Program-made: the position numbers and the translations under genes
Shown: piece after piece, positions 3,005-31,997 of the stretch
Numbering within the stretch: the stretch's first letter is position 1
Layout: each line of letters starts with the position of its first letter
From: Dubosiella newyorkensis
Lineage (GTDB): Bacteria; Bacillota_I; Bacilli_A; Erysipelotrichales; Erysipelotrichaceae
NCBI RefSeq assembly: GCF_001945605.1
Contig: NZ_MPKA01000052.1
Location: 1,452-33,451 of the forward strand
Reading direction: 5' to 3'
Length of the DNA stretch: 32,000 nt
The notes under the pieces: model-generated
What the model was told of the DNA's origin: nothing
The model's input: only the letters and a program-made list of their open reading frames with translations
Database searches by the model: none

Positions 3005-3826
3005 CTATTTCTTAAAACGATCTTTCAAGAAGATCCATCCAACGAGGAAGAAGAGGATCGTTCCTGCGATAACGATGGCTACAAGATTTCGGTCGAACAA
3101 GGAGGCGTCTTGGCTTCCATCCCCTTCGAGGGCGTTTGGAACCCGATGACCTCGCACAAGCAAACGATGGGAATTGATTCCATAGGGTGTACAGGTCACG
3201 AGTGTCATTAAATCTTGGCCTGGAACGATTTCAAGGTCGGATGTTTCTTCCGGAAGCACAGTGCGGATCTGATCGACTTCATAGGTCAATGTTTTTCCTA
3301 ATACGCGAACCGTAAATGTGTCGCCTTCGACGAGCTTGGTAATGTCGGTAAACAGGCGGGCACTTGGTAGTCCTCGATGTCCAGATATGACGGCATGGGT
3401 GCTTTCTCCTCCAACAGGAAGCGAGCTTCCTTCAATGTGGCCCACATTTTTTTGGAGCAGGTCTTCATCTGTTCCATGAAAAATAGGCAAATTGATATTC
3501 GCTTTTGGGATGTTGACCGATCCCATCAATCCATCGTCGTTCACGTTCAATGTTTTTTCATAAAGTTCATGCATTTCTTCGGAAGGAAAGTAGCGATTCT
3601 TTTCTTCCAGAAGCAGTTGGTTGTATTTGACGGCGTCGGCATACATCAGTTCAAGATCTTCTTCTTGAAGCTTAGCGACCGCTTCGTCGTATGTCGCGAC
3701 AGCACGGGCCGCATACATTTCATTCCACCAATTGGCGATTGTAGGATACAACAGCAAGGACAGGCCTACCGTGAAAGCCACAATCAGCAGAATTGTCGTA
3801 AAATTCTTTTGTATGTATTTTTTCAT
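3005..3826 (-). CDS. srtC: Class C (pilus-polymerising) sortase
   Basis: Catalytic TLVTCTP (TLxTC) motif, His in AVISGHRG and Arg in LLVRGHR. It has an N-terminal signal anchor and a C-terminal TM helix (LVAIVIAGTILFFLVGWIF), as in class C sortases. SD AAGGAG lies 9 nt upstream. Confidence 0.9.
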   Translation of the reverse strand: MKKYIQKNFTTILLIVAFTVGLSLLLYPTIANWWNEMYAARAVATYDEAVAKLQEEDLELMYADAVKYNQLLLEEKNRYFPSEEMHELYEKTLNVNDDGLMGSVNIPKANINLPIFHGTDEDLLQKNVGHIEGSSLPVGGESTHAVISGHRGLPSARLFTDITKLVEGDTFTVRVLGKTLTYEVDQIRTVLPEETSDLEIVPGQDLMTLVTCTPYGINSHRLLVRGHRVPNALEGDGSQDASLFDRNLVAIVIAGTILFFLVGWIFLKDRFKK

Positions 3827-3852
3827 GTAGGACTCTCCTTACCATTGCGGCA

Positions 3853-3881
3853 AGAGAAAGAGCAGTAAAAGCTCTTCTCTC
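3853..3881 (-). promoter_or_regulatory. Intercistronic stem-loop between the major pilin and sortase genes, with no U-tract
   Basis: Arms AGAGAAAGAGC (3853-3863) and GCTCTTCTCT (3871-3880) pair with one bulge. The hairpin lies in the 97-nt gap after the pilin stop and is not followed by a T-run on the minus strand. Confidence 0.3.
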
Positions 3882-3923
3882 TAACAATGGCTAATCAACT
3901 TTAAACAAAATCTTTTTAAGATC

Positions 3924-5585
3924 TTATCCTTCGTTGCTCATTCTTTTTTTCGTGATCAACAAGATCGCAGAACCTACTAGGAGCACTCCACCGATCACGT
4001 AGAGCATTGTGGTTCCCATGCCACCAGTTTCAGGGAGGGTAGTTCCTTTGGTGTTTAAGATGTTTCCGGTAACAACACCTGTATTTGTATCCCCGGTTCC
4101 ACTTGTACCATCGACAGTCATAGTTAAATCAGTAACACTACTTCCATCATGATCTGCAGTGATTTTTATTTCAAATGGATTTGCTGGAGTATTGTATCCA
4201 GTTGGTGCAACAACCTCATATAACTTATAATCACCAGCATCTAAACCAATAATGCTAAATGTTCCATCTTTCGCAGACTTAATATTTCCTTCCTTTGGAA
4301 GACTCTCTTTTTTTCCATCCCATTTTGTCCACATAGTAATCTTGCCATTAGTTACTAAGGCATATTCATTATTGTTTCTAGTAATGATAAATTCAGCACC
4401 TTCTAATTTTTCGGTTGTTAAAGCTCCATCCACTTTAGTCCCATTTAATGTAAAGTTATATACATAAACCGTTTTTTCTGTTGTTTCCCCATCTCCACCA
4501 GTATTTGGATTATTAGAATATTCTAGCTTTACTTTATTGTTTTCTTGGAAAGCAGCACTACTATTTAAAGTCGCTGTATATTCAATAACAATAAAATCAC
4601 CTGCTGTAATATATCGTTTAGAGGAACCATATGGAGTAGTTTTTAAATCTGGTAAATTTACTGAAAAGCTTCCTCCGCCATTATCCAATGTTTCATCAGT
4701 TAAAGTATAATGGTTACTACCAATCAAATTGGTTTTTACCAACCCTTCCTCATCGTATGTTAAAACACCGTTAACTTCTTTTGCAGACACGCTATATACT
4801 TTTATATCATCATTAAATGATAATCCGTTAGATAAAGTATCTATAAAATTAAACTTATATGTATCATAATGAGTCATATCTGGAACTTGAGCAGATAGTC
4901 TAAATGTAATGCTATCTCCAATACTATAGTCAGCTGAATTACCAAAACCTTGACTCTTTCCATTTTCTTTATCCTCGACTTCTTTGGTTACATCAACATC
5001 TTCTGTTTTAGGTTTAATCGTAATATCACCTACTACTTGAAGAACTGCTGGGTTTACAGAACCCGTAGTAGTCTCATCAACGATCAAGTAATATCCATCT
5101 TGAACAAGTGCAGAATATTCACCATTTTCGGGTTTCAACACTGTTTTATCAACGTTATCAGGAATCTTTTTATCTTCAGCATCATTATCTGCTAATACAT
5201 CATAGATAACCTTTGCTAACTTAATTCCTTGGTCATCGGTAAAACCATCAAGTGCTTTAGCAACTTCTTTTGCTTCTGATGTAGTTTTAAGTTTTTTAAC
5301 AGCATCAACATCTGTGAAGTTATTTTTAAGACTATTAATCAATGTTGTTTCTGCCTGTGCACTTGTAATTGCGTCACCCCAAGTTACATCAGCTAAAACT
5401 TCATCAGGAGTATCTCCTGATTTTGTTCCTTTAAAAATTTGATAAGCAGTAAATGTACGCCCAGACAAATTAGTTTTTCCTGTTTCAGTTTCGACTGTAA
5501 CCTTCGCTGCCGAAACAGAAGTCGTTAATGCAAAAGCCATCGCTAATGCAACAACACTTCCAAACAATTTTTTAATCATTTTCAT
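3924..5585 (-). CDS. LPXTG-anchored major (backbone) pilin, SpaA/RrgB-like, 553 aa
   Basis: Signal peptide ..LTTSVSA/AKV. Pilin-motif lysine context DITIKPKTEDVDVTKE. E-box YKLYEVVAPTGY. Sorting signal LPETGG (4020-4037) followed by a hydrophobic helix and a KKR tail. SD AAAGGA lies upstream. Confidence 0.85.
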   Translation of the reverse strand: MKMIKKLFGSVVALAMAFALTTSVSAAKVTVETETGKTNLSGRTFTAYQIFKGTKSGDTPDEVLADVTWGDAITSAQAETTLINSLKNNFTDVDAVKKLKTTSEAKEVAKALDGFTDDQGIKLAKVIYDVLADNDAEDKKIPDNVDKTVLKPENGEYSALVQDGYYLIVDETTTGSVNPAVLQVVGDITIKPKTEDVDVTKEVEDKENGKSQGFGNSADYSIGDSITFRLSAQVPDMTHYDTYKFNFIDTLSNGLSFNDDIKVYSVSAKEVNGVLTYDEEGLVKTNLIGSNHYTLTDETLDNGGGSFSVNLPDLKTTPYGSSKRYITAGDFIVIEYTATLNSSAAFQENNKVKLEYSNNPNTGGDGETTEKTVYVYNFTLNGTKVDGALTTEKLEGAEFIITRNNNEYALVTNGKITMWTKWDGKKESLPKEGNIKSAKDGTFSIIGLDAGDYKLYEVVAPTGYNTPANPFEIKITADHDGSSVTDLTMTVDGTSGTGDTNTGVVTGNILNTKGTTLPETGGMGTTMLYVIGGVLLVGSAILLITKKRMSNEG

Positions 5586-5688
5586 GAATTTATTCCTTTC
5601 TTTAATTTCTCAAAAAACATGAGTTTATAACTTTCTTGTTATAATCCCTTTCATAAAGTTAAATAAATGAACTCTCTATTCTATTCCC

Positions 5689-8600
5689 TTATTTTTTCTT
5701 CTTGCTCCACCATCCCTTCTTTCGAAGTATTACCACATAGCCAGAAGTAGCGATCACGCTAATTCCACTGGCCATGATTGGTGGCTCAATGCCAATACCT
5801 CCCGTTTCTGGGAGCGCAAAATACTTGTTATTAAACACCTTTACATAATGACTTAAACTCGAACCGCTTTTTATAGTACCAATAATTGTGTATGTACCAT
5901 TTTCCGGTTTTTTTTCTGGTTCTTTTATGTCACAAGCACTACCTGTACTCAAACAAGATGAAACAAAAGTTAAGTCTTTCTCGTTTGAATTTATATTTTC
6001 AGTGATTTTATAATGAGAATTAATCGGCAAATATTTGATGATAGCATACTGATTGTTCTTCAATAAAATTTTTCCTCTACTATGGAATGTAACATTTGAA
6101 CGTTTCTCATCAATTATGTCATTTCCGTTTGAAGATTTAGTATAAACAGTCAAAGCATATTCATTTGCTAATTCATTGCCATTCTGATCACTCAACACTA
6201 TTTCGAATTCATAATCTTTATCTGGATCAGGATCGTTTGACTGCTTTTCTAAACGAAGTTCTCCAGTTGCATTTTCAGGAGTTTTAGAAACTACATTTGG
6301 CAATGTATATTCCATATAACAAGAAGACCCCGCTTGACCACGTTCTAAATAATAAACTGTTAAAGTATGCTTACCAGATGATAAATTGTCTCCTAATGCT
6401 TGTCGTATATCTACTTCAGCGCCAATTGATTGATGGACACCTCCAATGTCACAAATCAACTGATCATCTAAGAATACCCACATATCGTCATCTCCATAGA
6501 AGAAATAACGTAAAGGTCCTGTATAGTTTTCATCTAAGATAAAATCAACTTGGTATTTCATACCAAATAAAGTGTTATGATCTTGATCATCATCACTTTT
6601 ATAGGTTCCATTAAAACCATAAGTATTACCGTTATACTTTAATTGAGGTTGATTGTTTGGGGATCCATAATTTTTGGTCGTATCTAAATTATCTAAAGGC
6701 CAAAATCCATTATAATGAAATCTGTTTTTTTGTTGTCCTGCAGGGGTGTAAGCATCCTTTGTTAAAAATTGATTTAACGTGTCTTTATTGTAGTTATTTG
6801 GTCCTGAAACACCATAAAGTGAATAGGTGTCTCCGGTCCTATCGAATTTTAAAGAACCGTCTAATCTAACGGATTTCCCTATTGCTGTTCCTTCATCAAA
6901 CAATTTAGGTGCATTTACTGCATATTGAAGATGTCCGTCAGAATCTAAAGCGCTATTTACTAATCCAAATATTGGGTGAGATCGAACAGCTCTGTGCACA
7001 TCTATTGTTTTTGTATTGTTATTATTATCTTTTACAGTTTGAGTGGTAATGAATTCTAAATTTCCTGCCGACTGATTAATACTCTTATCGTTCTTGTTTA
7101 CATTTACTTGTGGATCATTGCTATAAAATTTTTCAGAAATATATTTATTTCCTAAAACTAAAGTTGGAGCATTTGTTGATGAATAATTTTTTTCATTATT
7201 AATCCCCACCCTACCATTATTATGGGTATAAATATTCAGATTAGTATCATAAAAATCATAATCCCAAAAAGACGTCTTTTCTGTAGCTTTGGATTCGGTT
7301 TCATTAAATACCAACCGAATTTCTGTTCCTTCTGTTATCAGATAATATTTCCCTTCAAAATCATTAGGTTGTAGAGGATCATATAAATCTTTGTGTTGAT
7401 CTGAATTTGTAAACCGAATATTTTTAGCTAAATCATTTGAATTGTAATTAAATTTAGACCAATTCGATTGTTCATTTGGTTTTATCCATATTTCTTTTAA
7501 ACAATACGATTCTACACCATCCAATTTATTAAAATAATCTAAGCTAGGAGCTTGATGAAATTTATACTTAGTCGACGAATAAATTTCTTCTGGTTCCTTA
7601 CCTAATTTTTTATTAAATTTTCCCTGAACATTTTTATAATCTTTATATTTAACAAATCCAGGGGCAAATTTCTCAGGAATTTTTGTCATATCTATAACTT
7701 GGAAAGTTGCATTTTGTCTTGCTGTTTTACCTTGATTCAAATCTTCATAAGTAGCTTCTTGGTTTTTATGGAGATATCCATAAATTTCTACTTCAAACTC
7801 AGGGTTAGGCGTTATTTGAATATTAAGAACCATAGGATCCGATGCATTTTGACTAAAAACTATAGGGGTATTAGTATAATTTTTGTTAATTAAAATACTA
7901 TCATTAGCCGTTTCCGCATCAATCAAATCTGTTTCTACCGTTTTGTTGATGTTCATTATAGAAACGCTAGCTCCTACTTCCGCCTCTGGCTTGACATCCT
8001 CCAGATCCTTCGTAGTATCATACTTCTCCACAAAAGCTTGAGTAGGTGTTAGCTCCGCATCAAACTTCTGATCCTCCAAATTGATCTCTTGGTCTTCCAC
8101 AAAGAATCTAAGCTTGTAGAATGACAAATCAAGCAACTGTTCAGGATCCGTATCCTTTTCGCTTTGTTCTTTTAGCTTTTGGATTTCGAGTTGATCTTCT
8201 TCATTTTGTGTTGTTTCATCGATCTTCTCGATTTGAAGTGTAGGAATTGGTTTATTTTCCTCTTCCTCTTGTTCTTGTTTCGCTTCTTCTTGGATCTGTT
8301 CCAATTCATCTTCGGAACGATTGATTTCTTCATCGATCTTGTCTTGGATGTTTTCTTCTGGTTCTAAGCTGAACTTTTTGATTTGGAGTTCGTTGTCTGT
8401 CGTTTTTTCTGTTTCTTCTTGTTCTTTGTTTTCTTCTTCTAGTTGTTTATTTTCTTCTTTTTGTTCTTCTTCTTGCTCGCCAGGAATCGATCTAGGCTTT
8501 AGAGTGAGCGTGAAGTCTTCTGTTTCTACTTTGAACTCTTCTGGAAGGCGATATTCGATCTCTTCTTTTGTTTCTTCGTTTTTGTCTTCTTTTTCTTCTT

Positions 8601-9669
8601 CTGCTGGTTCTTCTTTTCCATCTTCTACTACTGGATCTTGTTCTGTCGGTTGTTTTTCATCCTCTACTTCTTGAACTTCTTGTTCTGGATGCACATAGGC
8701 CATCGTTTCATACTCTTTTTCTTGAAGAACGATTTCCTTTACTTGATCATTCAAATCGCCCACGATGGCTTTATTCTTGTCTTGATTCACAAGAAAACCA
8801 ACATAACTCTTAATTTCTTTGTCAGGAACATTTTCATCCTTTTGATCTTTGAAGAAGATCAAATCTCCATTTTGTGGTTCATATCCTTCTGGTTCAAACA
8901 ACTCTTTCTTCGAAAGATCTTCGATCCATTCGTTCCAGTCGTGTCCATATGGAATTTGTTCATTCTTGATTCCCGCATAATGAAGGACGAATGAAGCGAA
9001 CATGATATTCCAGTCTTCGTATGGCTTTCCATACCATTCTCCATACCGCGTGTAATAGTGTTCTTTCCCATCAGAATCGAGTTCGAAGTTTTCTTTTACT
9101 TCCTTATAGTCTTTTTGACTCTTCGCAATCTGGACGATCTTTTCATCCAGCTTGTCGCTCAACGTTTCCGGAATCGAGTTTTCCCAATCTTCCTTCTTTT
9201 CTTTCAATTCTTTATTGGAAGTACATTCTTTCGAATGGGTGTGTTCTTCTTTTCCGCAAACAGGATCGACACTCAAATAACATTTTGGAGAATGTTCATG
9301 TCCTTCTACGCTTTCGCTCTCTTCTTTATCGCAAATCAATACTTGTTCTTGCTGGAAACACGACTCGTCATGAACATGCTCTTCACTTTCTTCCAAAGGA
9401 CAAATGAGCGTTTGTTTGATTTCATAACACGAATCGTCGTGAACATGACCTTCGATCGATTCTCCTTCTACTTTTCCGCAAAGCGGATCTTTAGAATGAT
9501 AACAATCTTCTGTGTGCGTATGCTCTTCCTTATCGCAATAGAATTGCTGGGCTTCCGTTTCCAAAGTCAATGCCGGAAGGATCAGCGCATACGTTGTACA
9601 AAAGACGATCAAACAACTTAGCGCGTTCGTCACCCGTCTCCAAGAACGTTTTTTTCTCTTTCTATCCAT
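5689..9669 (-). CDS. Large LPXTG surface adhesin and probable pilus tip protein, 1326 aa. Domains in order: Cys/His repeat region, CHAP-like domain, acidic spacer, fibro-slime/PA14-like domain, CnaB-like domain.
   Basis: N-terminal signal anchor. Five C..H-x-H-x3-C(Y/F) units (9223-9537). CHAP/NlpC-P60-like segment YGEWYGKPYEDWNIMFASFVLHYAGI..GDLIFF..SYVGFLV..IVGDLND (8689-9147). E/Q/K-rich spacer (8140-8688). Fibro-slime signature GFWPLD..FFYGDDDMWVFLDDQLICDIGGVH..LTVYYLERGQAGSS (6300-6711). LPETGG at 5797-5814 followed by a TM helix and KK tail. Confidence 0.85.
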   Translation of the reverse strand: MDRKRKKRSWRRVTNALSCLIVFCTTYALILPALTLETEAQQFYCDKEEHTHTEDCYHSKDPLCGKVEGESIEGHVHDDSCYEIKQTLICPLEESEEHVHDESCFQQEQVLICDKEESESVEGHEHSPKCYLSVDPVCGKEEHTHSKECTSNKELKEKKEDWENSIPETLSDKLDEKIVQIAKSQKDYKEVKENFELDSDGKEHYYTRYGEWYGKPYEDWNIMFASFVLHYAGIKNEQIPYGHDWNEWIEDLSKKELFEPEGYEPQNGDLIFFKDQKDENVPDKEIKSYVGFLVNQDKNKAIVGDLNDQVKEIVLQEKEYETMAYVHPEQEVQEVEDEKQPTEQDPVVEDGKEEPAEEEKEDKNEETKEEIEYRLPEEFKVETEDFTLTLKPRSIPGEQEEEQKEENKQLEEENKEQEETEKTTDNELQIKKFSLEPEENIQDKIDEEINRSEDELEQIQEEAKQEQEEEENKPIPTLQIEKIDETTQNEEDQLEIQKLKEQSEKDTDPEQLLDLSFYKLRFFVEDQEINLEDQKFDAELTPTQAFVEKYDTTKDLEDVKPEAEVGASVSIMNINKTVETDLIDAETANDSILINKNYTNTPIVFSQNASDPMVLNIQITPNPEFEVEIYGYLHKNQEATYEDLNQGKTARQNATFQVIDMTKIPEKFAPGFVKYKDYKNVQGKFNKKLGKEPEEIYSSTKYKFHQAPSLDYFNKLDGVESYCLKEIWIKPNEQSNWSKFNYNSNDLAKNIRFTNSDQHKDLYDPLQPNDFEGKYYLITEGTEIRLVFNETESKATEKTSFWDYDFYDTNLNIYTHNNGRVGINNEKNYSSTNAPTLVLGNKYISEKFYSNDPQVNVNKNDKSINQSAGNLEFITTQTVKDNNNNTKTIDVHRAVRSHPIFGLVNSALDSDGHLQYAVNAPKLFDEGTAIGKSVRLDGSLKFDRTGDTYSLYGVSGPNNYNKDTLNQFLTKDAYTPAGQQKNRFHYNGFWPLDNLDTTKNYGSPNNQPQLKYNGNTYGFNGTYKSDDDQDHNTLFGMKYQVDFILDENYTGPLRYFFYGDDDMWVFLDDQLICDIGGVHQSIGAEVDIRQALGDNLSSGKHTLTVYYLERGQAGSSCYMEYTLPNVVSKTPENATGELRLEKQSNDPDPDKDYEFEIVLSDQNGNELANEYALTVYTKSSNGNDIIDEKRSNVTFHSRGKILLKNNQYAIIKYLPINSHYKITENINSNEKDLTFVSSCLSTGSACDIKEPEKKPENGTYTIIGTIKSGSSLSHYVKVFNNKYFALPETGGIGIEPPIMASGISVIATSGYVVILRKKGWWSKKKK

Positions 9670-16889: not shown

Positions 16890-19800
16890 TTAAGCCTCCT
16901 CTTCTACTGTTTCTGTTGCATCTATTTCTTCATCGACAGGATCGTCTTGAATGATCTGACCGTCGACTATATCTTCTTCTTCAATATGATCTTCTTTCGG
17001 CTCGATATCATTTTCAAGTCGCTCGTTTGCTGGCGCCTCGAACACCTCGTGCTCATGGCTGATATGCTCATCCTCTTCATTGGTGATGTCGACCTCGTTG
17101 CCATTCTCATCAAGAAGACGCACATCGATCGCAAGCCCTTGAAGCTCATGCATCAACACGCGGAACGATTCAGGAATCCCTGGCTCAGGAATATCCTTTC
17201 CTTTAATGATCGCTTCATACGTTTTGATACGACCCTGGATATCATCCGACTTGATCGTCAAGATCTCCTGCAAAGTATGGCTGGCGCCATAAGCTTCCAA
17301 AGCCCAGACCTCCATCTCACCAAATCTTTGACCACCATTTTGCGCTTTACCACCAAGAGGCTGTTGGGTAACAAGCGAATATGGTCCCGTCGCGCGCGCG
17401 TGCAGCTTATCGTCAACCATGTGCGCCAGCTTGATCATATACATGACACCAACGCTGATCCGCTCATCGAAAGGAAGACCCGTCTGACCATCACGAAGCA
17501 CTTGTTTACCATCCTTCGTCATTTTCGCTTCTTCCATGATCGCGGCCAGCTCTTCATTGGAGACACCATCGAATACTGGAGTCGCGAACTTTTGATCAAG
17601 CTTCTTCGCCGCATAACCAAGATGGATCTCTAAGATTTGTCCGATATTCATACGCGAAGGCACGCCAAATGGATTCAAGATGATATCGATCGCCGTTCCA
17701 TCCTGCATGAATGGCATATCTTCCACAGGAAGGATCTTCGAAATGACACCTTTATTTCCGTGACGACCAGACATCTTGTCACCCTCGGAAATCTTACGCT
17801 TTTGAACGATATACACTTTGATCCGCTCATTGACTCCAGGAGGAAGGTCAGCCCCTTCTCCGCGTTTGAATTTACGGATCGAATGCACGATTCCAGCACC
17901 ACCATGCGGAACCTTCAAAGAATTATCGCGGACTTCACGCGACTTCTCGCCAAAGATCGCCAACAAGAGCTTTTCTTCTGGAGAAACTTCCGATTGTCCT
18001 TTTGGCGTTACTTTACCTACGAGAATATCGCCTTCTTTTACTTCCGCGCCGACCATGATGATACCATCTTTGTCCAACTTGCGAACCGCGTTTTCTCCAA
18101 CGTTAGGAATGTCGCGCGTGATCTCTTCTGGACCAAGCTTCGTATCCCGGCAGTCGATATCATATTCTTCGATATGAATCGAAGTATATACATCATCCGA
18201 AACCATGCGCTCTGACATGATGATGGCATCCTCATAGTTATATCCATACCAAGTCATGTAAGCGATCGTCACGTTTTGACCAAGCGCGAGCTCGCCATTT
18301 TCCATACTTGGACCATCCGCCAAAATGTCTCCCACTTTGACTTCTTCGCCCAGTTTAACGATCGGTTTTTGGTTGATCGATGTCGAAGCGTTGCTTCGAG
18401 CGAACTTACGAAGCTGATATGTATGCGCTTCGCCTTCCTTATCTGTCACGACGATCCGCAACGAATCCACATACGAGATTACCCCGTCTTGCTTCGAAAC
18501 GATACCAACACCAGAATCTTTCGCGATCTTATATTCGATTCCCGTTCCAACATATGGAGAATGTGGCGTCAACAAAGGTACCGCTTGACGCTGCATGTTG
18601 GCACCCATCAAGGCACGAGAAGCATCATCGTTTTCAAGGAAAGGGACACACGCCGTGGCCACAGAGACGATCTGCTTTGGAGAGACGTCCGCCAATTCGA
18701 CATCTTCGCGATTCGCGATGATCGTATCGCCATTTTTACGGGCGACCACGCGTTCATTGATCAAACGTCCATCCCGGACCTCGTTGGCCTGGGCGATGAC
18801 ATAATCCGCCTCTTCATCCGCAGAAAGATAGATCGCCTTTTCCTGAACCGTGCCATCTTTGTTTACGATCCGATATGGCGTTTGGATAAAGCCATACTCA
18901 TTGATCTTGGCATAAGTCGTCAAGTTGGAGATCAGCCCGATGTTCGGTCCTTCTGGCGTCTCGATCGGACAAATACGGCCATAGTGCGAAGAGTGAACGT
19001 CACGCACCTCGAATCCGGCACGTTCCCTAGAAAGTCCACCAGGCCCCAATGCCGAAATACGACGCTTATTGGTCAACTCGGCCAATGGGTTTTGCTGGTC
19101 CATGAATTGAGAAAGCTGCGAAGAAGAGAAGAACTCTTTGATCGCCGCTGTCAACGGTCGAATGTTCGTCAATTTTCTTGGCGTTAGATTATCGAGTTCT
19201 TGGATCGACATTCTTTCTTTGACGACCCGCTCCATCCGGCTAAGACCGATCCTAAACTGGTTTTGGATCAATTCGCCCACCGAACGGATCCGACGATTGC
19301 CAAGCATATCGATATCGTCTGTTTCGCCAATTCCATCCATGACATTCAAGTCATAGCCAAAGAATGCATAAATATCGGCGATCGTAACAGTATGCCGGTT
19401 AGCGAATGGATCATTGCCGACGATCTTGACGATCTGCTCATCTTTATCGACGACCTTGACTTCTTGACAAGCCGCGCCAATGAGCCAAACATTCACTTCT
19501 TGTTCGCCAAGCTTTTGGTGAAGAGCGAGCTGGTTCGCGTCGTCGATGCGATCTGGACTTACCCCCACTTGATAGCGAGGAACGATCAATTCCATTTCAT
19601 GATCGATCACATCTTGTCCATCCGCGTTCGTGATCCGACCCATCGCGAACAAACGCTGTCCATAGTTCATCACCGCATTGAAGTTTTCTTCGTTGAGCGT
19701 AACTGGCTTAGCGACGATACCCGCATAGATCTTGACTTTTTCCACATGCTCTTTGAGCTTGTCGACATCTTGCTGGGTCAAGACAGTGCCTTCTTCGAAC

Positions 19801-21065
19801 AATGTTCCGAACACATCGACATCTTTGGCAAGGACACGACCTACAAGACCTGCATTATAGCTTGTCGGGATCGTCACGATATCCTTTTCATGGAACTCGG
19901 AACGGAAAGGATAAGGAACCATATATCCTCCTTTCGAGAGGATCTCCTTCAATTGGTTTCTCTCGTCCCGATGGATATGAAGGCCTTGCTCCATCACCAC
20001 ATTGCCATCAATATCCACGATATCCGTAGCCAACGTGTTGTTCATCATTCGAGCATACGCGTTGAGTTTTTTCTGCAGCTTATAACGTCCAGCCTTCGTG
20101 AGATCATAACGGCGATGATCGAAAAACTTCGCTTGCATCAAAGTGATCGAACCATCAAGCGTTGGGATCTCGTCGCTTCTTTGGTTTTCATAAAAAGAAA
20201 GAAGCGCTTCTTCTGTCGTTTTGACTTTATCGTTCAACAACGTGTTTTCAATTTCTTCGTATTTTCCAAAGAACGCGTTATACAACATCAAATACAAGTT
20301 CATGTATTCTCTGTTTTCCTCGTCTTCCGGCACATCTTGAAGCTGCCGGCCTAAAGCGTGAAGGAATGTTTCAAGATCTTTCGTATCGAAAGCATCCTCG
20401 TTCTTTTCCAAGCCAAAAGACATTCCTAAAGCTTTGAAGAAGATCGAGAAAAGGATCTTACGGCGGCGGTCGATCGAAACATTGATCGTTCTTCCGCTCA
20501 TCGTTTTCTTTTGTTCAGTCATGAACTCAAGCCAAGTACCACGGCTTGGGATCAATTCACAGTTATAGTTCTGCTTTCCTGTTTTTTCGTCATACGCTTC
20601 CGAAAAGTAAGCTCCAGGAGAACGAACGATCTGAGAAACGATAACACGCTCCGCACCATTGATGATAAAAGTACCGGTGTCTGTCATCAAAGGGAAGTCG
20701 CCTAAGTAAACTTCTTCGCTTTTTGTACGCACTTCTCCGGTATCCGGATCCGTGATCTCTAATTCCATTTCCGCATAGAGCGGAGCTGCATAGTTGCATT
20801 CTCTATACATTGATTCTTCGGCATTGTATTTCGGCTCGTCGAAATAAAAACGCACGAAGTTTAATTTAATATTCTTACCGTAGTTTTCAATAGGATATAT
20901 TTCTTCAAATACTTCCTGGATTCCATGTTTTGTGAACCATTCGAACGAATCTGTCTGGATCTCGACAAGATTCGGTAATTCGAGGTTTCCACTTACTTTT
21001 GAGTAGTCTCGCCTGGAGGATTTGTTTCCGCAAGAAACTGTGCGATACGCTTTGTTGCTGTCCAT
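16890..21065 (-). CDS. rpoB: DNA-directed RNA polymerase subunit beta (expanded, about 1391 aa)
   Basis: Conserved blocks include [56 protein letters not shown] and [18 protein letters not shown]. The ORF track starts at ATG 21074, but that ATG directly abuts the SD (AAAGG-ATG). The in-frame ATG at 21065 has a 9-nt spacing, so it is preferred. Confidence 0.97.
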
Positions 21066-21132
21066 GAACGCCATCCTTTCGTGTGGTCTGCCTTCCTAGT
21101 CACTAAGAATACAGACTATTTTGCAATTTATT

Positions 21133-21161
21133 ATATTATCAATGAGATTCAAGTCTGTCAA
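21133..21161 (-). promoter_or_regulatory. Sigma-A promoter for rpoBC
   Basis: On the minus strand: TTGACA (21161-21156), a 17-nt spacer and TAATAT (21138-21133). It lies about 60 nt upstream of the rpoB start. Confidence 0.6.
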
Positions 21162-21207: not shown

Positions 21208-21354
21208 TTAAAATGGATTCGCGATCGCGAGCATCAACATCAAGAACGAAAGACATAAAAACAGCACAGTAAGCTTCGTGTTTTTCATCGTGATGAAGTA
21301 TAAGCTGACGATCGAAAATAAAATACATAATATAAAGAACAATAGAATTACCAT
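21208..21354 (-). CDS. Possible 48-aa two-TM hydrophobic peptide (below the ORF-track length cutoff)
   Basis: My translation is MVILLFFILCILFSIVSLYFITMKNTKLTVLFLCLSFLMLMLAIANPF*. The ATG lies 7 nt after the stop of the GTPase-NYN gene. No recognisable SD is present. Confidence 0.2.
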   Translation of the reverse strand: MVILLFFILCILFSIVSLYFITMKNTKLTVLFLCLSFLMLMLAIANPF

Positions 21355-21361
21355 AATGATC

Positions 21362-23839
21362 TTATTTAAGATGAGAGAGCGCGATCGCGTTGACTCCCAT
21401 CACTTTCCCTTCTAATTCTCTTGCGGAGATCCGATTGGCGCCACTTGCCAAGATCGAATTCTGGATCAGCCCATCCGAAGTCGCCACACTGATCGAATAA
21501 TGACTCTTTAGATCATGGACTAGACGTTCAATATAAGAATCCGCATTTTCTCCATATCTCGTATAGATGATCTTCGTTTTATGACGCGTTTCGTTGCGTC
21601 CCTCCCCTTGTTTGCGACGATACGCATCAAAGACAAGATAGACATCGATATCCTTATATCCTTGATAATTGACGATTTGGTCGATCAAACGCTCCCTAGC
21701 GGCGTTATAATCCGCTTTAGCAAGATCTTTCAGCGAATTCCAGCTATAGATCATATTATAGCCATCGATCACGAGAAGCTCTGGCTTTTTAGGCTGGATC
21801 TTGATTTCTTCATGATCCAGTTCTTGCTTGACTTTTGGTTTTTTCGCCTTTGGTTTCTCTTTCTTTTTTGAAAGCGTTCTTTCAAATGCGCGCTTCGCTT
21901 CCTCATCCGATACGTGATAACGCACTCTTTCATAAGAATGGCTCGACTCTGTATCGAGAGGATGAAGATGCATTTTTTCTTCGACCTCGTCGTAAGGAAC
22001 ATAATACCCGGCCCCTTGTTTGCAGAAAATCGAGCCAGTCGGATGCTTGAGATCCGCCTCAGGATCGTATTGGATCGTTTTCACGATCGATTCTGTATCT
22101 TGGCTTGGCGCATAAACGCTCTTGATGAACGCGATCTTTCCTCTTCCTTTGCTCAGGGCGGAAAGCTCCGATTGAAAGTTCATCAACAAACGAATGGCGC
22201 CGCTCCCTTGGATCGTGCTCATATCTTCTTCTGTCTCTAAGATCTCGAAGCTCGCATTTCTTTGTTCCAATTCATAGAGCACCTTAGAAAGGCTTTGAGA
22301 TGGAACCTCGATCTTAAATGTGTAATAAGGTTCTAATAAGATCGATTTCCCTTTGCGCAAAGCTTGACGCACGGCGCGATGGGCGGCTTGACGAAAGTCG
22401 GCAGCCGACGTATGTTTCAAATTCCCTTGTCCTGCGATCAATGTGATCTGCACGTCCGTTAATTCCGATCCCGTCAACACCCCATATTGTCTTTGGTTCA
22501 AAGCGTTCATGATTTGTTGTTGCCAGCCTAAAGACAACGATTCGATGCGGTTTCCATTGCAGACAACGACGCCTGATCCTGCTGGCAAAGGATCAAGGAG
22601 AACATGCACTTCCGCATAATGACGGAGAGGTTCAAAATGTCCCACTCCATATTCTTGTTTCCCGATCGTCTCTTTATAAACGACGCTTCCTTGCGAAAAA
22701 CCGATCAAGATGCCTGTTTTTTCTAAGATCATCTTTTGCAGGACCTCTTTTTGAACATCGCCCCGCAATCGGAGGGTGATCTTTTTGCTCCTTTCATGAT
22801 AGTCAAGCTGCAAGCTCGGATCTTCTTTTGCTAATTGCTGGCAATAAGGCCAGAGCTGCAAAGCATCGACTTCTTCAGGTAATAGCAGCTCATACGTCAA
22901 AAAGGAGGCCAGCAGACGTTCTTGTTGGGCTGTTTCATAACCGAGGCCATCTCCGACTTTCCAATCGGTATCGGCTTTGAGGGCGACAATATCTCCCGCA
23001 TTCGCTTCTTGTAGAAGCGTATACTTTTGTCCATTGAAGCTGCGGATCTGATCGATCTTGATTTCATTGACGATCTCTTTGGCTTTCAGCGTTCCGCCCG
23101 TGATCTTGGCTAGAGCGCTTCCATCTTCTTGGATCTTGAAAATACGGGCTCCAAATTCTTGGGAAAATTCTTTTTGCCCAACGAGGGCGCAAAGAGAGTC
23201 GAGCAGCGGATCGACGCCTTCATTTTTCAGGGCGCTCCCAAAAAAGGTCGGAAAAAAGCGTCGAGTCAAAAAGAGTCTTTGAATCGTTTCCGAGGACAAA
23301 GAGCCTTGTTGGAGGTATTCTTCGAGCGCTTTGTCCTCGCACATCGCGATCATTTCTTCCCGATCCTTGTCGGCTTGATCGATACTGTTGGGATCGAGCT
23401 TGCTTACGACTTCCTCTAAGATCTCTTCTTTGTTTCGATAAGCGATATCCATCTTATTGACGAAGATCAATGTGGGGATCTCATATTCTTTCAAGCATTT
23501 CCAGATCGTTTCCGTATGCGATTGGATACCGTCCTGGGCGCTGATCAAAACGATGGCGACATCAAGCACGCTAAGGACTTGTTCCATTGAGGCTGAAAAA
23601 TCGACATGTCCTGGTGTATCGATCACGAAGATTTCATGATCTTTCCACTTGAATTTGGCTTGTTTCGCAAAGATCGTGATCCCTCTTTCCCTTTCTTGTG
23701 GATCATAGTCGAGGAAAGCGTCTTGATGGTCGACTCTTCCTTGTTTTTTGATTTGATGGCTTTCGTAGAGCATGCTTTCGATCAGTGTCGTTTTGCCTGC
23801 ATCGACATGGGCCAATATTCCTAGTGTAATCTTTTCCAT
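21362..23839 (-). CDS. Fusion protein of a TetM/EF-G-like translational GTPase (ribosomal-protection-protein paralogue) and a C-terminal Rae1/YacP-type NYN endoribonuclease domain, 825 aa
   Basis: GTPase motifs are G1 AHVDAGKTT, G3 DTPGH and G4 NKMD, with strong N-terminal similarity to Tet(M) as recalled (..GVLAHVDAGKTTLTESLLY..ERQRGITI..IDTPGH). An EFG_C-like segment reads LEPYYTFKIEVP. A Lys-rich linker reads KKKEKPKAKKPKVKQ. The last roughly 139 aa (21365-21781) read LLVIDGYNMIY..YLVFDAY..ENADSYIE..VATSDG..ISARELE, which aligns with B. subtilis YacP/Rae1 (LLVDGYNMIGAW..VVFDAH..ETADERIE..VATSDY..SARELL). The reading frame is uninterrupted. Confidence 0.85.
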   Translation of the reverse strand: MEKITLGILAHVDAGKTTLIESMLYESHQIKKQGRVDHQDAFLDYDPQERERGITIFAKQAKFKWKDHEIFVIDTPGHVDFSASMEQVLSVLDVAIVLISAQDGIQSHTETIWKCLKEYEIPTLIFVNKMDIAYRNKEEILEEVVSKLDPNSIDQADKDREEMIAMCEDKALEEYLQQGSLSSETIQRLFLTRRFFPTFFGSALKNEGVDPLLDSLCALVGQKEFSQEFGARIFKIQEDGSALAKITGGTLKAKEIVNEIKIDQIRSFNGQKYTLLQEANAGDIVALKADTDWKVGDGLGYETAQQERLLASFLTYELLLPEEVDALQLWPYCQQLAKEDPSLQLDYHERSKKITLRLRGDVQKEVLQKMILEKTGILIGFSQGSVVYKETIGKQEYGVGHFEPLRHYAEVHVLLDPLPAGSGVVVCNGNRIESLSLGWQQQIMNALNQRQYGVLTGSELTDVQITLIAGQGNLKHTSAADFRQAAHRAVRQALRKGKSILLEPYYTFKIEVPSQSLSKVLYELEQRNASFEILETEEDMSTIQGSGAIRLLMNFQSELSALSKGRGKIAFIKSVYAPSQDTESIVKTIQYDPEADLKHPTGSIFCKQGAGYYVPYDEVEEKMHLHPLDTESSHSYERVRYHVSDEEAKRAFERTLSKKKEKPKAKKPKVKQELDHEEIKIQPKKPELLVIDGYNMIYSWNSLKDLAKADYNAARERLIDQIVNYQGYKDIDVYLVFDAYRRKQGEGRNETRHKTKIIYTRYGENADSYIERLVHDLKSHYSISVATSDGLIQNSILASGANRISARELEGKVMGVNAIALSHLK

Positions 23840-23861: not shown

Positions 23862-23892
23862 AAAAAAACAGAAGCGGAGAATCACGCTTCTG
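23862..23892 (-). terminator. Rho-independent terminator of the DUF3783-like gene, overlapping its stop codon
   Basis: Minus-strand stem CAGAAGCG / CGCTTCTG (23885-23892 and 23869-23876) followed by TTTTTTT (plus-strand A7 at 23862-23868). Confidence 0.65.
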
Positions 23893-31882: not shown

Positions 31883-31997
31883 AACCGGCAGCGTCCTATT
31901 CTTGCAGGCGCTAAGCCAACTACCTTCGGCGATGGAGTGCTTGACTTCTGTGTTCGGGACGGGAACAGGTATTTCCACTTCTCTGTCACCACCGGAT
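31883..31997 (-). rRNA. rrf: 5S ribosomal RNA, the 3'-terminal gene of an rrn operon that continues beyond the window
   Basis: The reverse complement reads ATCCGGTGGTGACAGAGAAGTGGAAATACCTGTTCCCGTCCCGAACACAGAAGTCAAGCACTCCATCGCCGAAGGTAGTTGG..AGAATAGGACGCTGCCGGTT. This aligns block by block with B. subtilis 5S (..GTTCCCATACCGAACACGGAAGTTAAGC..GCCGATGGTAGT..AGTAGGACGCCGCC). The helix I ends are complementary. Ends are accurate to about 2 nt. Confidence 0.93.

Follow-up and report, generated by a model that had tools for sequence, protein, structure and literature searches.

The stretch of DNA analyzed here (the window; 32,000 nucleotides of contig NZ_MPKA01000052.1 from Dubosiella newyorkensis) carries a gene in which an EF-G/TetM-like translational GTPase is fused to a ribonuclease domain of the Rae1/YacP type (an NYN domain). 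This architecture has already been catalogued and is functionally uncharacterized; the window gene is a new, compact member from the Erysipelotrichaceae. An initial annotation, made from the letters alone, had described one uninterrupted frame of 825 codons, and the list of open reading frames (ORFs) bears this out: the frame starts with ATG and runs without interruption on the minus strand, the strand being absent from that annotation. The parts of the gene are listed below, with the evidence for each in brackets [AF2, AlphaFold2 model; pLDDT, predicted local distance difference test; aa, amino acids].

21362-23839, minus strand: GTPase-NYN fusion gene, whole, 825 aa (ORF list, Pfam and NCBIfam scans)
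21362-21364, minus strand: stop codon of the fusion gene
23180-23839, minus strand: G domain with a short G′ insert, residues 1-220 (GTP_EFTU, E 1.9e-54)
23786-23812, minus strand: G1 motif AHVDAGKTT, residues 10-18 (motif position checked)
23606-23620, minus strand: G3 motif DTPGH, residues 74-78, including the catalytic His78 (motif position checked)
23447-23458, minus strand: G4 motif NKMD, residues 128-131 (motif position checked)
22940-23158, minus strand: domain II, a beta-barrel, residues 228-300 (weak EF-G_D2 match; AF2 beta-strands 230-300; Foldseek)
22706-22903, minus strand: domain III, residues 313-378 (weak EFG_III match; AF2 alpha/beta fold)
22349-22687, minus strand: domain IV, residues 385-497 (EFG_IV, E 5.8e-12)
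22604-22648, minus strand: domain IV tip loop I, GVGHFEPLRHYAEVH
22385-22432, minus strand: domain IV tip loop III, GQGNLKHTSAADFRQA
22097-22339, minus strand: domain V, residues 501-581 (EFG_C, E 7.9e-14; AF2 fold)
21968-22096, minus strand: family-specific C-terminal module, residues 582-624 (AF2, family conservation)
21782-21967, minus strand: flexible tether, residues 625-686 (low pLDDT, 16% mean identity)
21875-21913, minus strand: short conserved helix in the tether, residues 643-655
21824-21871, minus strand: Lys-rich stretch of the tether, SKKKEKPKAKKPKVKQ, residues 657-672
21365-21781, minus strand: Rae1/YacP-type NYN core, residues 687-825 (NYN_YacP; alignment to B. subtilis YacP)
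21755-21766, minus strand: NYN motif DGYN, residues 692-695
21626-21631, minus strand: NYN D738, in FD 737-738
21539-21544, minus strand: NYN D767, in AD 766-767
21473-21481, minus strand: NYN D789, in TSD 787-789

Pfam places GTP_EFTU at residues 4-218, EFG_IV at 385-497, EFG_C at 501-581 and NYN_YacP at 689-814, the last with E 6.7e-41 and 140.5 bits against a gathering cut-off of 24.6. Profile scans, which the initial annotation had proposed as a check, accordingly find the GTPase domain, EF-G domains and NYN_YacP in one polypeptide. The GTPase motifs AHVDAGKTT, DTPGH and NKMD all lie at the expected positions, and the Lys-rich linker was located as SKKKEKPKAKKPKVKQ. Pfam matches to EF-G domain II and EFG_III are weak in the window protein; the EFG_III match is clear in its relatives. 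An AlphaFold2 model built from 91 homologues has a mean pLDDT of 80.7, with confident domains arranged in the five-domain EF-G/TetM fold, and a Foldseek search with this model returned EF-G and TetM structures with E values of 1e-41 to 1e-45 over about 680-690 columns. The features that define the translational GTPase superfamily, G1-G5 including the His of DxPGH and the five-domain fold, are thus all present in the window protein.

The possibility that the fusion is an assembly artefact or a chimera was considered and rejected on three grounds. First, the window protein is 100% identical to a recorded Dubosiella newyorkensis protein (P0001, "NYN domain-containing protein"). Second, all of the 120 best homologues have the same architecture (47-100% identity, 821-870 aa), and the best 80 loci in reference genomes (one genome per species) are full-length single-frame fusions without exception; neither a stop codon nor a frameshift was found at the junction in these other assemblies, and no split two-gene version occurs among the 80 loci. 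Third, codon usage is uniform, as the initial annotation had stated: the cosine between the relative synonymous codon usage of the GTPase half and the NYN half is 0.89, within the range for neighbouring genes, and the GC content at third codon positions is 0.51 vs 0.48 across the junction.

The C-terminal part of the protein aligns to residues 2-128 of B. subtilis YacP/Rae1 (PDB 5MQ8/5MQ9) with an E value of 4.9e-22. The acidic residues of DGYN, FD, AD and TSD are in place, as had been claimed, and D692, D738, D767 and D789 align one-to-one with B. subtilis D7, D53, D81 and D104. The Rae1/YacP family has been defined by a first Asp followed by GYN and by at least four active-site Asp residues (PMC5499597), and both DGYN and the four Asp are found in the window protein. 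The description of this region as a full YacP/Rae1 NYN domain therefore stands for the catalytic core, which is complete. It does not stand for the C terminus: of the 166 positions of the NYN_YacP model, the match takes in 1-128, the protein has none of the basic helices found at the YacP C terminus, and after the core the AlphaFold2 model predicts only one helix (806-824), which is non-basic. The loss of the basic helices would make sense if the GTPase now supplied ribosome targeting. In 41 of the 71 other family members, a tail of at least 30 aa follows the NYN core, and such tails are consistent with retention of the YacP C-terminal region in those proteins.

The fused nuclease resembles B. 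subtilis Rae1 in its NYN_YacP core, its DGYN motif and its four catalytic Asp residues, with about 43% identity over about 125 residues, and ribosome dependence would be expected of the fusion too. The two differ in that Rae1 is a free protein of 170 aa that is encoded in an rlmB-yacP-sigH context and binds the ribosome transiently, whereas the core of the fusion is tethered covalently to a GTPase, lacks the basic helices and is encoded in an unrelated gene context.

Conservation along the protein was analyzed in 71 family members with 38-51% overall identity. Domain IV is the most conserved region (53% mean identity to the query, 22% invariant columns), followed by the G domain (50%, 15%), the C-terminal module (47%, 14%) and the NYN core (43.5%, 8%); the linker has 16% mean identity and 0% invariant columns. 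Conservation is 100% for G1, G2 and G3 (with the catalytic His78 in G3) and for D692, G693, Y694, N695, D738, D767 and D789 of the NYN core. In domain IV, G398, G400, H401, E403, P404, L405, H407 and E410 as well as K475, H476, T477, D481, F482 and R483 are 100% conserved, and R406 (96%), Y408 (99%) and A409 (99%) nearly so. The two tip loops of this domain can be written as G-x-G-H-(F)-E-P-L-R-H-Y-A-E and K-H-T-x-G-G-D-F-R, with 96-100% conservation. Judged from the alignment, both enzymatic halves are under joint purifying selection, and both look functional. Since domain IV is the most conserved region and its tip loops are essentially invariant, the contacts that the tip makes in the decoding centre must be central to function. 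The higher conservation of domain IV relative to the G domain, together with the invariant His, Glu, Arg, Tyr and Lys residues of the tip, also points to the residues that are worth mutating.

Between domain V and the linker lies a module of ~43 aa (residues 582-624) that is absent from Tet(M)/Tet(O). In the AlphaFold2 model, it consists of a helix (582-589) and two beta-strands (603-607 and 610-614) with a pLDDT of 80-90, and it follows the pattern ..YD..D..P.GS.FC..G.G..VP(W/Y)....MH. Y591, D596, S603, F605, C606 and G609 are 100% conserved in the 71 members and H624 is 97% conserved. As an aside, C606 (100%), H608 (92%) and H624 (97%) surround the beta-hairpin (residues 603-624; window positions 21968-22033) and could form a small metal-binding site, a candidate suggested by the conservation pattern; the Dubosiella protein has Gln at position 608, and any such site would be incomplete here.

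The segment that joins the module to the nuclease has a pLDDT below 50 at residues 629-645 and 655-679, and the model shows residues 629-679 as disordered. Across the family, its equivalent is 61-124 aa long with a median net charge of +2, and the lack of invariant columns fits a tether. Its short helix is conserved at E647 (96%), I/A651 (94%) and R654 (80%). The initial annotation had read a Tet(M)-like C terminus (ERVRYHV) into this region. The VRYHV string does resemble VRYMF of Tet(M). However, it lies in a segment of low confidence (pLDDT < 50) and is kept only in close Erysipelotrichaceae relatives, a different helix being the one conserved family-wide, and the alignment to Tet proteins has ended by then: it stops near residue 570, with ~35 residues more in Tet(M).

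In the 2015 survey that reported such fusions, it was suggested that they are tetracycline ribosomal protection proteins with an accessory RNase, and NCBI names some members accordingly. The top matches in both NCBIfam and PDB are indeed Tet ribosomal protection proteins, and several members are annotated as belonging to the TetM/W/O/S family. The scores nevertheless fall short: the best NCBIfam model, tet_protect (NF012153), gives 380.2 bits vs a cut-off of 775, the TetM/TetW/TetO/TetS family model 258 bits vs 1100, and all specific Tet models are far below their cut-offs. The EF-G equivalogs fail as well (TIGR00484, 224.3 bits vs 659.4). In the PDB search, Tet(O) scores 218 bits, Tet(M) 209 bits and EF-G 192 bits, and the identity to Tet(M), ~26%, is barely above that to EF-G. 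The designation "complete TetM" in the initial annotation was thus overstated. In relation to EF-G (fusA) and EF-G2, the protein shares the overall fold and the G-motifs (Foldseek E 1e-45) and differs in its identity of about 21-24%, its short G′ insert and its domain IV tip motifs; the true fusA is a separate gene, in A. rectalis, for example, following rpsL-rpsG.

The loops bear on the same question. Compared with Tet(M)/Tet(O) (PDB 3J9Y, 4V6V), the window protein is likewise a five-domain EF-G-like GTPase with a short G′ insert, and its loop III has the same length as that of Tet(M), which speaks for a protection protein. The content of the loop differs: it reads GNLKHTS where Tet(M) has YYSPVST, KHT being invariant in the family, so that the YYSPVS of Tet(M), including Pro509, is swapped for a different family-invariant motif. 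The function of Tet(M) depends chiefly on loop III: its Pro509 overlaps the tetracycline site (PMC7456112), and shortening of the loop abolishes Tet(M) activity (PMC4750697). Because Tet(M) tolerates some loop III substitutions (PMC4750697), the difference is suggestive and not decisive. The fusion further differs from Tet(M)/Tet(O) in its failed cut-offs, its own invariant loops I and III, the module at 582-624, its non-mobile character and its nuclease, the last being invariant and without a role in drug displacement. In addition, many lineages carry it as a lone chromosomal gene that has no tie to mobile elements, a pattern unlike the patchy spread of tet genes driven by horizontal gene transfer (PMC4342817). 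On these comparisons, the fusion is probably not a tetracycline-resistance protein, and we consider a protection protein with an accessory RNase highly unlikely. RefSeq names P0032 (Faecalicoccus), P0082 (Solobacterium) and the A. rectalis protein WP_306784676.1 (locus L085, 4117-6918) as TetM/TetW/TetO/TetS resistance proteins. Members named in this way fall short of the curated cut-off and do not have the loop sequence that displaces the drug. Such labels on fusions would be a probable systematic mis-annotation of genes of gut commensals, and they can inflate resistome estimates.

How widespread is the fusion? When 1.84 billion representatives were searched exhaustively with residues 571-825, 227 proteins were obtained at E<=1e-30. 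Among the best 150 of the 227, almost all are 800-1156 aa long, the others being shorter and apparently truncated, and six long matches from the 227 that were scanned all have the fusion architecture. Four short proteins (P0129, P0228, P0141 and P0186; 170-200 aa) were considered as free-standing relatives and rejected; they begin inside the linker or the module of known fusions and are fragments. Thus, all the closest relatives of the NYN tail that were checked are fusions or fragments of fusions. In the reference genomes, the best 80 of 586 reported relatives were verified as fusions; the figure of 586 is not a count of fusions, as ordinary Tet and EF-G proteins fit the search pattern AHVDAGKT too. 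Fusion-bearing taxa include Lachnospiraceae, Oscillospiraceae, Ruminococcaceae, Acutalibacteraceae, Erysipelotrichaceae, Anaerovorax, Intestinimonas, Flavonifractor, Herbinix and others. The fusion family is large and chromosomally inherited, in Clostridia, Erysipelotrichales and Desulfitobacterium. Size varies within it: P0250 (1156 aa) and P0203 (1069 aa) have very large insertions in the G domain (the GTP_EFTU match of P0250 runs from residue 3 to residue 520, with about 330 aa inserted at the G′ position), and some members have linkers of more than 120 aa.

The initial annotation knew of no characterized example. This is right for function, for which none was found, and wrong for the architecture, which two papers record. 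Atkinson [2015, BMC Genomics 16:78; PMC4342817] listed TetM-like/NYN_YacP fusions in ten Clostridia-type genomes (Additional file 8): R. albus 7, E. rectale, E. eligens, B. proteoclasticus, C. cellulolyticum, C. lentocellum, L. phytofermentans, C. thermocellum and two D. hafniense strains. Matelska et al. [2017, NAR 45:6995; PMC5499597] reported the same fusion "in some Clostridia" and did not decide on its role. The ten sequences from 2015 share with the window protein the domain order, GHFEPLRHYAEVH, KHT.GGDFR, the C-terminal module (..S.FC..G.G) and the NYN Asp residues; GHFEPLRHYAEVH, KHT.GGDFR, the ..S.FC..G.G module and DGYN, all present in the window protein, are ~100% conserved in the 71 members. 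Unlike the published fusions, the window protein comes from the Erysipelotrichaceae (Dubosiella), a lineage named in neither paper. It is among the shortest members, with a tether of 62 aa vs a family minimum of 61, and has no YacP basic tail, which most Clostridial fusions keep. Neither paper analyzed function, conservation of the domain IV tip, or distribution past one sentence. The occurrence in Erysipelotrichaceae and the true breadth of the family are therefore not to be found in them. A full-text literature search likewise returned no paper that connects the fusion to current Rae1 biology.

With respect to gene context, the fusion gene in the window lies between a DUF3783 gene upstream and rpoB-rpoC downstream; genes for a branched-chain amino acid ABC transporter and a CBS/ACT protein are found further upstream of DUF3783. 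The order DUF3783-fusion-rpoB is kept in Dubosiella muris and absent in Faecalicoccus, and rpoB, rpoC and DUF3783 were found within 8 kb in 0/80 other fusion loci. A conserved operon or synteny with rpoB or DUF3783 was accordingly rejected, the context being kept only within Dubosiella. Clustering of 502 neighbour proteins from 77 loci gave no conserved partner; the clusters contain generic ABC, MATE and kinase families only, each in at most 11 of the 77 loci and at variable positions.

The initial annotation had pointed to the position of the gene next to rpoB as similar to that of yacP in B. subtilis. This likeness did not hold up, as the adjacency is confined to Dubosiella and the rlmB-yacP-sigH context of free yacP is not seen here. 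In C. difficile, for example, free yacP is found in the order gltX-cysS-mrnC-(thyX)-rlmB-yacP-sigH-...-rplJ-rplL. That free yacP belongs to an operon of rRNA and tRNA metabolism (mrnC-rlmB-yacP) favours another view of the fusion, in which docking by the GTPase lets the NYN domain process, inactivate or break down ribosomes, as might occur in rRNA maturation, stress-induced ribosome inactivation or ribophagy-like turnover. YacP was first predicted to act in rRNA/tRNA processing (PMC4342817, PMC5499597). The sequence does not discriminate between substrates, and if a widely conserved housekeeping protein cleaved rRNA constitutively, only tight gating would keep it from being toxic. A nuclease held at the factor-binding site would, on the other side, be near h44, H69 and the sarcin-ricin loop. 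We regard an enzyme directed at rRNA or tRNA as unlikely.

Plasmid records with the fusion are limited to replicons of 252-518 kb that are classed as non-mobilizable. Many such "plasmid" records are in fact chromosome fragments, as seen for C. difficile (L084, NZ_CP149721.1) and for A. rectalis and Monoglobus (L086-L088; "plasmid 15/16"). Carriage by phage was rejected: the "Bacteriophage sp." contig that was examined (L090, MT835563.1, flagged UNVERIFIED) carries housekeeping genes and is a bacterial contig. Misfiled plasmid and phage records of this kind carry ribosomal-protein operons, rpoBC, tRNA synthetase genes and rlmB, a caveat for users of these collections. Together, these observations suggest that the fusion gene has a housekeeping character.

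They also bear on a role as an anti-phage, abortive-infection or toxin effector, in which the GTPase would sense translation perturbed by infection and unleash the nuclease. A 2026 preprint (PMC13622287) speculates that Rae1-type enzymes cleave ribosome-stalling phage mRNAs, and in A. rectalis a BrnT/CopG toxin-antitoxin pair adjoins the fusion gene. However, the window protein matches none of the families in PADLOC-DB at E<=0.01, the 77 loci contain neither a defence island nor conserved partner genes, and the gene is present in one copy per locus, is vertically conserved and is under housekeeping-like constraint; the "phage" records with the fusion are, as far as the one contig examined goes, bacterial. 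A defence role is hardly probable at all on this evidence.

Could the fusion take the place of free-standing Rae1? The test was partial, as it used chromosome fragments misfiled in the plasmid collection, the fusion-bearing ones being from Clostridia. In the records of Bacilli and Peptostreptococcales that contain rlmB, a free NYN gene abuts rlmB in every one. In Monoglobus pectinilyticus, the fusion is found in a 518-kb record, the genes that come after rlmB (368-kb record) are unrelated ones, and neither yacP nor sigH lies upstream of the rpmG-secE-nusG-rplK cluster (335-kb record). None of the Monoglobus records (at least 1.22 Mb) gave a second NYN match. The 252-kb A. rectalis record has both the fusion and an rpmG-secE-nusG...rpoBC cluster without yacP-sigH upstream, and the Vescimonas and Subdoligranulum records with rlmB contain no NYN at all. 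Possibly, then, the fusion replaces free-standing Rae1 in these Clostridia. A recent Rae1 census used hmmsearch at E<=1e-10 and states no length filter for Rae1, so fusions would have been counted as ordinary Rae1. If the fusion is the sole Rae1 homologue in Lachnospiraceae, Oscillospiraceae, Ruminococcaceae and Erysipelotrichaceae, dominant gut Firmicutes would carry out rescue through a GTPase-coupled nuclease. The free-yacP slot of Vescimonas fastidiosa (L089, 5731-7887), directly after rlmB with an 11-nt gap, is taken by a 718-aa hypothetical protein. It was considered as a disguised YacP and rejected, as it has no Pfam domain.

Taken with the joint purifying selection on both halves, a ribosome-targeted nuclease, as the initial annotation had it, is the most reasonable reading of the protein. 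The further premise of that annotation, that the nuclease acts on mRNA in the A site, goes back to the 2017 docking model of Rae1, which has since been revised. On stalled ribosomes, Rae1 cleaves 12 nt upstream of the A site [Deves et al.; PMC12407103], and according to a 2026 preprint [Tetreault et al.; PMC13622287] it generates tmRNA substrates on collided ribosomes; the same preprint states that ribosome-bound Rae1 has no solved structure, its binding being transient.

Delivery of the NYN domain into the A site by the GTPase, with cleavage of the A-site codon as RelE does, would agree with the 2017 model, in which Rae1 was docked into the A site (recounted in PMC12407103). The tether begins at the C terminus of the EF-G/Tet-like body, and the C-terminal extension of Tet(M), which matters for its function, extends to the decoding centre (PMC4750697); moreover, EF-G can take on compact forms in which domain IV is outside the A site (4WPO, among the fold matches). 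The authors of the Rae1 model themselves dropped it in favour of cleavage at -12 (PMC12407103). Domain IV would be expected to occupy the A site, leaving no simultaneous room for a 15-kDa NYN domain, and a tether that varies from 61 to 124 aa fits a search radius better than precise delivery. An A-site nuclease is therefore, in our judgement, quite unlikely.

We suggest instead that the fusion is a Rae1 that carries its own GTPase module, by which ribosomes are targeted and checked, and that the docked nuclease cuts outside the A site; to this we give about an even chance. From the binding to the ribosome on, we infer all steps, including which RNA is cut, where it is cut and what GTP does, to run as follows. 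The GTP form would dock at the ribosomal factor-binding site, as EF-G-family factors do, and the invariant domain IV tip would read the decoding centre/A site on a stalled or untranslocatable ribosome. Docking would hold the tethered NYN domain near the ribosome-bound mRNA, which it would cut outside the occupied A site, most plausibly on the mRNA entry side or in the inter-ribosome segment of a collision. The cut site would be equivalent to the position of free Rae1 at about -12 if the factor sits on the trailing ribosome. GTP hydrolysis through the invariant His78 would time or end the encounter, and the truncated mRNA would then pass to trans-translation.

A more specific version, in which an EF-G-like sensor timed by GTP engages a ribosome that resists translocation or has an aberrant A site, a prolonged dwell licenses the NYN cut at the collision interface, and the fusion replaces free Rae1 in many Clostridia and Erysipelotrichaceae, is put forward only tentatively. 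There are functional analogies in other systems. SmrB in E. coli and Cue2 in yeast are collision-sensing endonucleases, and Hbs1-Dom34 and eRF3-type factors act in GTPase-coupled surveillance. SmrB and Cue2 resemble the proposed enzyme in that a nuclease is brought to stalled or collided ribosomes and truncates the mRNA for rescue, and Hbs1-Dom34 and eRF3-type factors in that a translational GTPase gates a quality-control event on the ribosome. No homology is implied, the SMR and NYN folds being unrelated, and in all these systems recognition is the task of separate domains or partners and not of a fused EF-G-family GTPase.

Several considerations weigh against a GTPase-gated Rae1. The substrate could be rRNA or tRNA instead of mRNA, and the ribosomal state recognized could be the post-translocation state that Tet(M) recognizes, in which the A site is empty, or the rotated pre-translocation state that EF-G recognizes. 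Free-standing Rae1 works without a GTPase, so that the added value of the fusion is conjecture, and the reach of the tether was argued from general ribosome geometry and not from computed docking. The NYN domain is nearly as similar to free YacPs (42-44% identity) as to fused Clostridial ones (45-46%, over about 125 columns), values too close to set clades apart. The evidence for replacement comes from chromosome fragments of Clostridia and not from whole genomes. A terminator-like hairpin lies upstream of the gene and no promoter is visible; the expression level is uncertain in this genome. Finally, the full-text search found no experimental work on any member of the family.

If the more specific version is correct, the fusion would serve bacteria as a no-go-decay nuclease that a translational GTPase gates directly, a mechanism not described before. 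It would also offer a natural complex that can be trapped with GDPCP or by an H78A substitution, for visualizing Rae1-type nucleases on ribosomes. How Rae1 recognizes stalled or collided ribosomes is a question that a covalent EF-G-family fusion, lockable by non-hydrolysable GTP, makes approachable.

The remaining features near the gene are the following.

23869-23892, minus strand: terminator-like hairpin followed by a T7 tract (pattern scan and sequence; 8 bp, 5 GC)
3005-3826, minus strand: sortase
3924-5585, minus strand: backbone pilin with GramPos_pilinBB/SpaA domains
5689-9669, minus strand: DUF7601 protein, 1326 aa
9685-10281: signal peptidase gene, beyond the pilus cluster

The stop codon of the DUF3783 gene is inside the loop of the hairpin, which ends about 20 nt before the ATG of the fusion gene (23839). 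This gap has no room for a promoter, and expression may thus depend on read-through. In D. muris, the gap between DUF3783 and the fusion gene is 121 nt. On the downstream side, a 48-codon ORF (21208-21354, minus strand) with two hydrophobic segments (MVILLFFILCILFSIVSLYFITMKNTKLTVLFLCLSFLMLMLAIANPF) starts 7 nt after the stop codon of the fusion gene. The corresponding gap of D. muris (L081, 12490-12784) has no equivalent, and the ORF may be spurious or species-specific. About 60 nt upstream of rpoB is a strong sigma-70-like promoter (21133-21161, minus strand; TTGACA, 17 nt, TG-n-TAATAT), and rpoB is thus probably transcribed from a promoter of its own, independently of the fusion gene. The rpoB gene itself (16890-21074, minus strand) encodes an unusually long protein of 1394 aa with a highly acidic C-terminal extension of ~100 aa, and the extension is also found in D. 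muris (1401-1404 aa; L081, 12775-16989).

An Rfam scan near the fusion gene detected only a 5S rRNA gene at the edge of the window (31883-31996, minus strand; 78.6 bits), and the rRNA operon probably continues past the window. The sortase, pilin and DUF7601 genes form a Gram-positive pilus cluster (3005-9669, minus strand). Over 4-8 kb, the GC content is 0.29-0.35, compared with about 0.45 elsewhere in the window, and this drop at the pilus cluster suggests horizontal acquisition.

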